DNA of 64,000 nt from NCBI RefSeq assembly GCF_045037415.1, contig NZ_CP173438.1; one strand, 5' to 3'. The notes beneath the pieces were generated by a model. The model worked only from the letters and a program-made list of their open reading frames with translations. It was not told the origin of the DNA and ran no database searches. Source of the DNA: Escherichia coli (lineage in GTDB: Bacteria > Pseudomonadota > Gammaproteobacteria > Enterobacterales > Enterobacteriaceae). The translations under genes and the position numbers were made by a program. This document shows positions 1,811 to 2,761 of this stretch, one piece after another (the first letter of the stretch is position 1; every line of letters starts with the position of its first letter).

Positions 1811-2761
1811 ATGTATAGCCCATATTTGTATGCGAGAAGTACAGAGTTATTATGCCTTAGGGACCTCGTTGCGAAGGGAGTTAGCCTAAATGGTCTGCTA
1901 CCAATTTTAGAACCAATTAACGTCAATACGAGAAATTTATTAACATGTTTAAATGTTTGGAATTCTGACATAATTGTTATCCTTAATCCTTATCAGGAAG
2001 ATTTTTCTTCACACAATAACGTCTTAACTTTAAATCAAAATTTATCAAGTGTATTAACAAATAAAAATAATATCATCTCTGGATATCTTATTCAGCCCAA
2101 TACAACGATTAATGATATTAATAATTGGTTGAATGCTAACTTAAATAGACGAGTTGCACTTCTATATGATAATCCATCATTATCCAACTCTGATATTCAG
2201 TTGTTGGCGACAAATCAATTGATTAGTTATCATGTTGTTTTAAATAATAAAATGCTTCCTAATCAGTGCGCTCTTCTTCCTTTGTCGAAGTTAATTATTA
2301 TTAGCGATAACTTTAGAAAGTTAGCAAAAAATGCTGATTATAATGGGCCGGAACTTTTCACGCACGCACATCAATTCGTGGGACAAAATTACTTAGGATT
2401 TGGCGATTATACAATTACTGGCCAGGTACTAGATCTTGGAGGTGGTCAACCTTCTGCTGTTGCCGCACATTTGGTGTTCAAGAATTTACAAGCGAATACA
2501 GTTTGGATTCGTCATTTTGTATCAAGCAACACGCAACGAGGAAGTTCAAATGTTACTGCAAAATTTTTAGATGTTTCAGATCAAATTACAAATCTTGTTC
2601 CCCAACATCCAACCCAGTTTGGCAGCAACATTGGTCTTAACTATTATTATTACAATAGTCAACCAACTGTAAGGCATTTCCCTGGGTTGCCAAAAAACAA
2701 ACAGTATCAAATTACTCACCATATTTGTTTCATGCTGGATTTAATAGCAGGTCGTATTTAA
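1811..2761 (+). CDS. Hypothetical protein (316 aa); cassette gene B
   Basis: ORF 22 bp downstream of gene A, same strand and AT-rich composition; N/S/L/Q-rich; no recognisable catalytic motif; 3' end overlaps the integrase 3' end. Confidence 0.6.
   Translation: MYSPYLYARSTELLCLRDLVAKGVSLNGLLPILEPINVNTRNLLTCLNVWNSDIIVILNPYQEDFSSHNNVLTLNQNLSSVLTNKNNIISGYLIQPNTTINDINNWLNANLNRRVALLYDNPSLSNSDIQLLATNQLISYHVVLNNKMLPNQCALLPLSKLIIISDNFRKLAKNADYNGPELFTHAHQFVGQNYLGFGDYTITGQVLDLGGGQPSAVAAHLVFKNLQANTVWIRHFVSSNTQRGSSNVTAKFLDVSDQITNLVPQHPTQFGSNIGLNYYYYNSQPTVRHFPGLPKNKQYQITHHICFMLDLIAGRI

Follow-up and report, generated by a model that had tools for sequence, protein, structure and literature searches.

A candidate Beta-like subunit of a two-gene phage-defence module in the cargo slot of an Escherichia coli P4-like satellite

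We analyzed a 64,000-nucleotide stretch of an Escherichia coli chromosome (RefSeq assembly GCF_045037415.1, contig NZ_CP173438.1), which we call the window and which begins inside an integrated P4-like satellite. Two adjacent open reading frames (ORFs) of this satellite, gene A and gene B, are considered here, with gene B as the main subject. The reading that we favour, with a confidence only a little above even, is that gene B supplies the Beta-like subunit of a phage-defence module made up of genes A and B alone, in other words a gop-less sister of the gop-beta-cII abortive-infection system of P4. A role in defence is suggested because relatives of the pair in P4, and of gene B in the PD-lambda-2 system, take part in defence, and because the slot that the pair occupies holds PARIS or Kiwa in sister elements.

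Gene B, its family and its predicted fold

Gene B is encoded on the plus strand, from an ATG at position 1811 to a TAA at 2759-2761, and specifies a protein of 316 amino acids. The protein starts with MYSPYLYARSTELLCLRDL, carries a Gly-rich stretch from residue 196 on (GFGDYTITGQVLDLGGGQPSAVAAHLVF) and contains 14.2% L, 12.7% N, 7.3% S, 7.3% I and 5.7% Q. Re-reading the sequence bore out everything that the original prediction, made before any database was searched, had said about its length, N-terminus, Gly-rich stretch and N/S/Q/L-rich content. The guanine-plus-cytosine (GC) content of gene B (34.0%) and of gene A (30.6%) is far below that of the remainder of the window (51.5%), which makes both genes look foreign.

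A search among representatives at 50% identity returned 802 relatives of gene B at E<=1e-3, nearly all of them 300-330 amino acids long and aligning with it from end to end. Gene B is a real conserved gene, neither a chance ORF nor a fragment: the possibility that it is a pseudogene remnant fails on its full length, on the end-to-end alignment of its relatives and on the confidence of its structural model, described below. Gene B is represented in the databases by many E. coli entries that are labelled partial and measure 173-214 amino acids (around 180 member sequences, against 524 at full length); these may reflect contig breaks inside the gene, for instance at insertion sequence (IS) insertions in draft assemblies.

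The protein matches the NCBIfam profile NF033831 ('sce7725 family') with 242.2 bits (cut-off 60; E 1.1e-71), its residues 2-311 falling on positions 1-311 of the 312 in the profile. PHROG 34524 is a further match, and in RefSeq the product already bears the sce7725 family name (WP_000287253.1). Genes A and B both pass the curated cut-offs of their respective profiles (NF033832 for sce7726, NF033831 for sce7725) over the full length of the models; these names carry no functional information. The description of gene B as unrecognised was thus mistaken in database terms and holds functionally, as we found no paper in which gene B was tested. The 50 matches listed in the AlphaFold Database all span the full length; the name Sce7725 family protein is given to most of them and an automatic 'ATP-binding protein' label to some. 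They include A9FAE2 from the myxobacterium Sorangium cellulosum So ce56 and come from Proteobacteria, Actinobacteria, Bacteroidetes, Firmicutes and spirochaetes. Pfam-A searches with gene B gave nothing significant, regular-expression searches found no Walker A or Walker B motif in it, and searches of PDB sequences with the gene B and gene A profiles yielded chance-level matches only.

Structure prediction, which the original prediction had named along with a remote-homology search and a co-occurrence analysis as a means of checking it, returned a high-confidence model. The AlphaFold2 model of gene B has a mean predicted local distance difference test score (pLDDT) of 97.6 and a predicted template modelling score of 0.94, and superposition on solved structures identifies the fold as a (beta/alpha)8 triosephosphate isomerase (TIM) barrel. 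Its elements follow in the order of seven beta/alpha units, a strand, a short helix, a strand with a GD motif, a beta-hairpin, three helices and a long C-terminal helix. An alignment of 120 members of the sce7725 family, mostly 25-30% identical to gene B, shows seven invariant positions (N59, N174, D199, H235, S238, K297 and H304) and ten nearly invariant ones (Y2, P4, E12, P31, E34, P35, P60, H220, K251 and H303). Several of the conserved residues sit directly after predicted strands, and the conserved polar residues may form a ligand or active-site pocket. The earlier statement that no catalytic signature is visible stands as regards Walker motifs and Pfam-A matches, but family conservation exposes a candidate active or ligand site made up of the seven invariant residues.

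The conserved polar pocket of its TIM barrel means that gene B may be an enzyme just as well as a sensor. The main rival to a sensing role sees in gene B a TIM-barrel enzyme, dependent on a metal, which puts a chemical mark of self on DNA, a nucleotide or some other component of the cell, or which makes or destroys a small molecule, with gene A as the nuclease that reads the mark; the system would then resemble restriction-modification or signal-based immunity and not a sensor-effector complex. Both the Gly-rich loops and the polar residues that never vary fit this view, which we consider possible, if rather unlikely. The known TIM-barrel enzymes that come closest in structure, those of the group comprising citrate lyase beta, HpcH aldolase, phosphoenolpyruvate (PEP)-utilising enzymes and pyruvate kinase, share 6-10% identity with gene B in an alignment limited to the N-terminal part of the barrel, and have no counterpart to most of its invariant residues (N174 through H304). 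No sequence-level relationship of gene B to this group was found in Pfam-A or in a profile search of the PDB.

Relationship to P4 Beta and to known defence systems

The remote-homology search pointed to P4 Beta (PF14350), of which gene B is a distant homologue, as judged from a profile-profile match, common conserved residues and the same order of secondary-structure elements. A comparison by hhalign of the sce7725 alignment with a 38-sequence alignment of Beta gave a probability of 93.95% (E 1.5e-7, 281 columns), and a second run gave 94.7% (E 6e-8). Seven positions are conserved in both families (gene B/P4 Beta: Y2/Y10, P4/P12, E12/E20, P31/P37, P35/P45, F168/F203 and D199/D241). The sce7725 hidden Markov model (HMM) scored positively on all 38 Beta sequences, with a best E of 6e-7, and in the opposite direction PF14350 matched 9 of the 120 sce7725 members at E<=0.1 and one at E<=0.001. 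The AlphaFold2 model of P4 Beta (pLDDT 91.7) has a secondary-structure order identical to that of gene B. Two pocket positions differ, H220 and H235 in sce7725 being D262 and E272 in Beta, and both stay metal-ligand-like. Two further searches made no connection: Foldseek with gene B against BFVD matched a single protein, an uncharacterised one from a Gordonia phage (E 1.5e-9), and no entry for P4 Beta, and tblastn of P4 Beta against phage records was likewise uninformative.

The P4 gop-beta-cII system protects E. coli against lambda and P1, its Gop protein being toxic without Beta, which neutralises it (PMC9122126), and expression of the phage gene orf184 triggers cell death through this system (bioRxiv 10.1101/2023.04.06.535777). 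The likeness to our pair extends beyond the fold of gene B. Gene A is a clear homologue of cII (PADLOC 'cll' model, E 1.2e-18) and falls into the same NCBIfam and Pfam families as P4 cII; gene B and Beta belong to the same length class and share an N-terminal Y-x-P...E signature and the GD motif; and both systems lie in the cargo slot beside the integrase gene of a P4-type satellite. The differences are equally plain. The A-B module has no gop gene: tblastn with P4 Gop gave no match in 19 related loci, and PADLOC gave no gop match. Two ORFs of the window, at 344-661 on the minus strand and 565-777 on the plus strand, were considered as gop equivalents and rejected, as neither matches the gop model. 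Gene B fails both the PF14350 model and, even at E<=10, the PADLOC 'beta' model. In the window A and B are co-directional with A first, whereas P4 has a small ORF, then beta, then a convergent cII, a layout that recurs at canonical Beta loci in Pseudomonas, Methylibium and Acinetobacter, with a small ORF in the gop position. Finally, P4 cII lacks a conserved N-terminal region of gene A that is about 70 amino acids long. The A-B pair is a gop-less, co-directional two-gene variant of catalogued families whose three-gene P4 relative is already a validated defence system.

A second comparison concerns PD-lambda-2, whose Beta-like component C is required for defence and dispensable for toxin neutralisation (PMC9519451). 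P4 Beta matches the PADLOC PD-Lambda-2_C models (E 8e-14), and Beta-type barrels thus recur as a non-toxin third component that is essential for defence. For the idea that gene B senses infection or licenses its partner, component C is the best precedent. The PD-lambda-2 barrel accompanies a HigB-like toxin and an Xre-peptidase protein, whereas gene B accompanies a cII-type gene; we rejected gene B as a member of PD-lambda-2 itself, since it does not match the PD-Lambda-2_C models and is flanked by a cII-type gene and an integrase gene. PADLOC v2 includes models for DzbA and DzbB of Dazbog, a candidate membership that we also rejected, as genes A and B match no PADLOC model except 'cll'.

Pairing with gene A, natural lesions and the satellite slot

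Gene A matches NF033832 with 175.6 bits (cut-off 70), and BLASTP aligns it with P4 cII over the catalytic core (9e-11); P4 cII is itself annotated as sce7726 family in RefSeq and scores 151 bits on NF033832. Precomputed annotations place PF26915 ('Phage_P4_cII') on all gene A homologues, while our own Pfam-A search with gene A gave nothing significant; the two rest on different Pfam releases. In a 36-sequence alignment including P4 cII, D107, E119 and K121 are invariant and E98 is nearly so, a pattern that reads as a PD-(D/E)xK signature with an intact D...ExK nuclease motif. We take the MmcB-like family PF06319 to be a PD-(D/E)xK nuclease family, and HHpred relates P4 cII to it with a probability of 99.76% (Rousset 2022 supplement). 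Gene A is a predicted nuclease and probably the effector of the pair.

The proposal that gene B is functionally coupled to gene A found strong support. Gene B starts 21 nucleotides after the stop of gene A. A scan that took one genome per species, with a query built from 22 closer sequences, yielded 19 loci, 18 of them with upstream sequence, and in all 18 a gene A homologue lies directly upstream of gene B on the same strand. Over a wider range of phyla, gene A is the immediate neighbour of gene B in 26 of 27 testable loci, in co-directional as well as convergent layouts, and distant relatives (25-28% identity) retain the pair. Pairwise identities of A and of B are correlated in a mirror-tree comparison (r=0.93, 20 pairs). 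The 19 species-level loci have no third conserved gene, apart from an integrase-sized ORF of about 400 amino acids in five of them. In one metagenomic contig (L022 475-3621) SIR2_2, cII-like and sce7725-like genes form a single operon in which the SIR2 and cII-like genes overlap by 11 nucleotides, which suggests that optional effectors can join a cII/Beta-like core, as Gop does in P4. The pair of one relative adjoins an Eco29kI restriction-modification system, and in a Pyrinomonadaceae lineage B and cII are convergent and overlapping, the same layout as in P4.

The original prediction had held that gene B homologues standing without an A-like neighbour in housekeeping contexts would speak against coupling. 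The Pyrinomonadaceae pair does have such a context and has its gene A, and one locus lacks a detectable gene A. This sole exception is the GenBank record OR848224, 'Listeria phage LM 4-14-1' (L039), where the upstream protein has 229 amino acids and, by eye, a D...ELK motif, and where hhalign of this protein against the gene A family was not significant (E 0.12). The flanks of this locus contain ORFs resembling bacterial solute-binding and permease (transporter) proteins; the record looks like bacterial DNA mislabelled as phage.

The satellite is near-clonal, being present at 99% identity or more in 420 of 5,426 complete E. coli genomes, many of them labelled O25b:H4-ST131. Mass spectrometry and proteogenomics of E. 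coli clinical isolates detected a 'sce7725 family protein' and correlated it with aminoglycoside resistance (PMC8203672); the lineage bias of ST131 may lie behind this correlation. Natural lesions occur in both genes. THO-015 (L036 1501-3228), a viable strain, has gene B interrupted by an IS1 element after roughly codon 143 and retains an intact, identical copy of gene A. In FXCREC145 an IS1 element lies inside gene A, NR2550 has lost gene A and the 5' part of B, and strain 1449 possibly has a 1-nucleotide deletion in gene A (lesion records besides THO-015: NZ_CM135823.1, NZ_AP040168.1 and NZ_CP184069.1). Several further genomes carry IS66, ISEcp1 or IS4321 elements inside the 4.2-kb region.

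These data bear on the idea that the pair is a classical toxin-antitoxin system, as proposed for Gop and Beta, with A as a constitutively toxic nuclease and B as its protein antitoxin. The toxicity of Gop without Beta and the naming of the P4 genes as a likely toxin-antitoxin pair (Ghisotti 1990, as cited in PMC9122126) agree with this idea, as do the tight operon and the strict co-inheritance of A and B. The THO-015 lesion argues against B as an indispensable restraint on a constitutively toxic A, with the reservation that it comes from a single complete genome in which suppressors or a residual function of the 143-residue N-terminal fragment are possible. Further, B, a globular barrel of high conservation, exceeds A in size and does not resemble the labile proteins that antitoxins typically are; the supposed antitoxin lies downstream of the supposed toxin in the operon; and the Beta-like protein of PD-lambda-2 is not needed to neutralise its toxin. 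We consider the toxin-antitoxin explanation improbable, and gene B is probably not a simple antitoxin.

The satellite itself is an 11,009-bp element (L001 7067-18095) lying between 20-nucleotide direct repeats of the 3' end of a tRNA gene, and window positions 1 to about 4095 are its right end (Table 1). The other att copy lies 11,009 bp upstream of attR, outside the window, and the chromosomal genes yfdC, mlaA, fadL and fadIJ come after tRNA-Arg(CCU). The element is a P4-like satellite, as judged from its tRNA-repeat boundaries and from the gene order in the SK1144 annotation (helix-turn-helix regulator, hypothetical protein, 'P2 family major capsid protein', Icd-like protein, two small hypothetical proteins, DUF927, ogr/Delta, A, B and integrase). 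No psu or sid gene is annotated in it, a difference from canonical P4, and a search of window positions 1-4200 found no P4 cos site or other P4 DNA homology.

Table 1. Features of the satellite end and its integration site (window positions)
Feature	Position	Strand	Basis
ogr/Delta-like zinc-finger gene, 3' part; last backbone gene before the slot	1..228	+	RefSeq CDS L001 13956-14228; PHROG 603 transcriptional regulator, E 6.5e-18
Non-coding backbone common to sister satellites	229..600	.	Homology to other-cargo elements stops at ~588-605
Cargo-specific leader upstream of gene A, presumed promoter region	601..907	+	Position relative to homology break
Gene A, sce7726/Phage_P4_cII family, 293 aa, predicted PD-(D/E)xK nuclease	908..1789	+	NF033832, PADLOC cll, BLASTP, PF26915
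Shine-Dalgarno AGGAG of gene B	1798..1802	+	Sequence inspection; 8 nt before ATG
Gene B, sce7725 family TIM-barrel protein, 316 aa, distant homologue of P4 Beta	1811..2761	+	Subject of study
Satellite tyrosine integrase, convergent with gene B (21-nt overlap with the gene B 3' end)	2741..3916	-	RefSeq CDS L001 16741-17916; PHROG 1 integrase
attR core, 20-nt direct repeat ATGGTGTCCCCTGCAGGAAT	4076..4095	.	Repeat search; copies at L001 7067-7086 and 18076-18095
tRNA-Arg(CCU), satellite integration site	4077..4151	-	ARAGORN; Rfam tRNA, 63.4 bits

Genes A and B occupy an exchangeable cargo slot that validated anti-phage systems fill in sister elements. The backbone is shared with two satellites at the same att site, MB06172 (window positions 1-588 at 93%) and BCE049 (1-605 at 87%), and both then diverge. 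Between ogr/delta and the integrase gene, MB06172 carries an AAA ATPase and a DUF4435 protein (L037 6784-9013), which is the composition of PARIS (PMC9122126), and BCE049 carries kwaA and kwaB, that is, Kiwa (L038 6753-8402). The slot is exchangeable because PARIS and Kiwa take the same place in these sister backbones, and the reasoning that P4-like satellites are defence hotspots follows Rousset et al. 2022 (PMC9122126).

The same evidence bears on a non-defence role for the element or the cell, for example in the control of satellite lysogeny or replication or in DNA repair, with the proximity of the integrase gene being incidental. Such a role would accord with the first description of P4 gop, beta and cII as non-essential satellite genes (PMC9122126), with the historical name 'cII' and the HHpred similarity of P4 cII to the MmcB-like family (Rousset 2022 supplement), and with the position of the Pyrinomonadaceae pair among ymdB, smpB and peptidase genes. 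We give it little credence because PARIS or Kiwa can take the place of the pair in an otherwise identical backbone, so that the cargo is interchangeable and dispensable for the satellite life cycle; besides, the pair is found in many lineages without any satellite genes and the homologous P4 module is experimentally anti-phage (PMC9122126).

A few other observations on the region complete its description. The ogr/Delta-like gene starts 45 nucleotides before the window. The leader of the pair contains only weak promoter-like consensus sites, for instance at 891-919; PADLOC gave no hit of note in 229-600, and Rfam searches over window positions 1-4300 found the tRNA only. Only a remnant of the integrase is left in BCE049, followed by the vat autotransporter region. 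Just inside attL, outside the window, the pentanucleotide CCCAG is perfectly repeated in tandem about 13 times (L001 7207-7270), and the window contains a second low-GC stretch at 12000-13500 (36-41% GC), between sixA and the start of a fimbrial operon.

Role of the pair

In the reading that we slightly favour, the A-B pair, carried as satellite cargo, would protect against phage, with gene A acting as the nuclease effector and gene B sensing infection and licensing or restraining A through its conserved pocket. The residues that we have in view are D199, H220, H235, S238, K297, H303/H304, N59 and N174, and possible ligands of the pocket they would form are a phage protein or a metal together with a phosphorylated small molecule. 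The role of 'sensor or regulatory partner' that the original prediction had given to gene B is plausible on the analogy with its relatives in known systems.

Several points weigh against this reading. The link to Beta is remote, as the sce7725 HMM scores Beta sequences at only 2-20 bits and gene B itself has no match to Pfam PF14350. The invariant polar residues suggest catalysis over passive sensing, and the THO-015 evidence is limited in the way described above. PADLOC v2 does not call the pair as a system, only gene A matching, weakly, to 'cll', and the Pyrinomonadaceae pair is located among housekeeping genes. In the literature searched, the sce7726-sce7725 pair was not found as a named or tested system; queries for sce7725, sce7726, PF14350, PF26915 and the two WP accessions returned incidental mentions and no functional study, and in the supplements of DefensePredictor 'sce7726 family protein' is present only in a table of product names.

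A broader proposal, which we regard as doubtful and put forward as speculation, is that the TIM barrels of Beta and sce7725 constitute an unrecognised class of immune sensor-enzymes present in at least three systems (gop-beta-cII, PD-lambda-2 and the A-B pair). Their metal/phosphate pocket would detect an infection metabolite or a phage protein and license a cII-type nuclease, with Gop, SIR2 and HigB/peptidase as optional add-ons.

In Rousset 2022 and Vassallo 2022, Beta figures only as an accessory component or one resembling an antitoxin, and no biochemical study of Beta was found in the literature searched; the A-B pair would be the simplest experimental handle on the function of a P4 Beta-type protein. 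If the pair does defend against phage, it would represent a widespread system (802 clusters at 50% identity, in several phyla) that PADLOC v2 misses, and, with its satellite present in the 420 of 5,426 complete E. coli genomes noted above, it would be relevant to phage therapy against the ST131 lineage.

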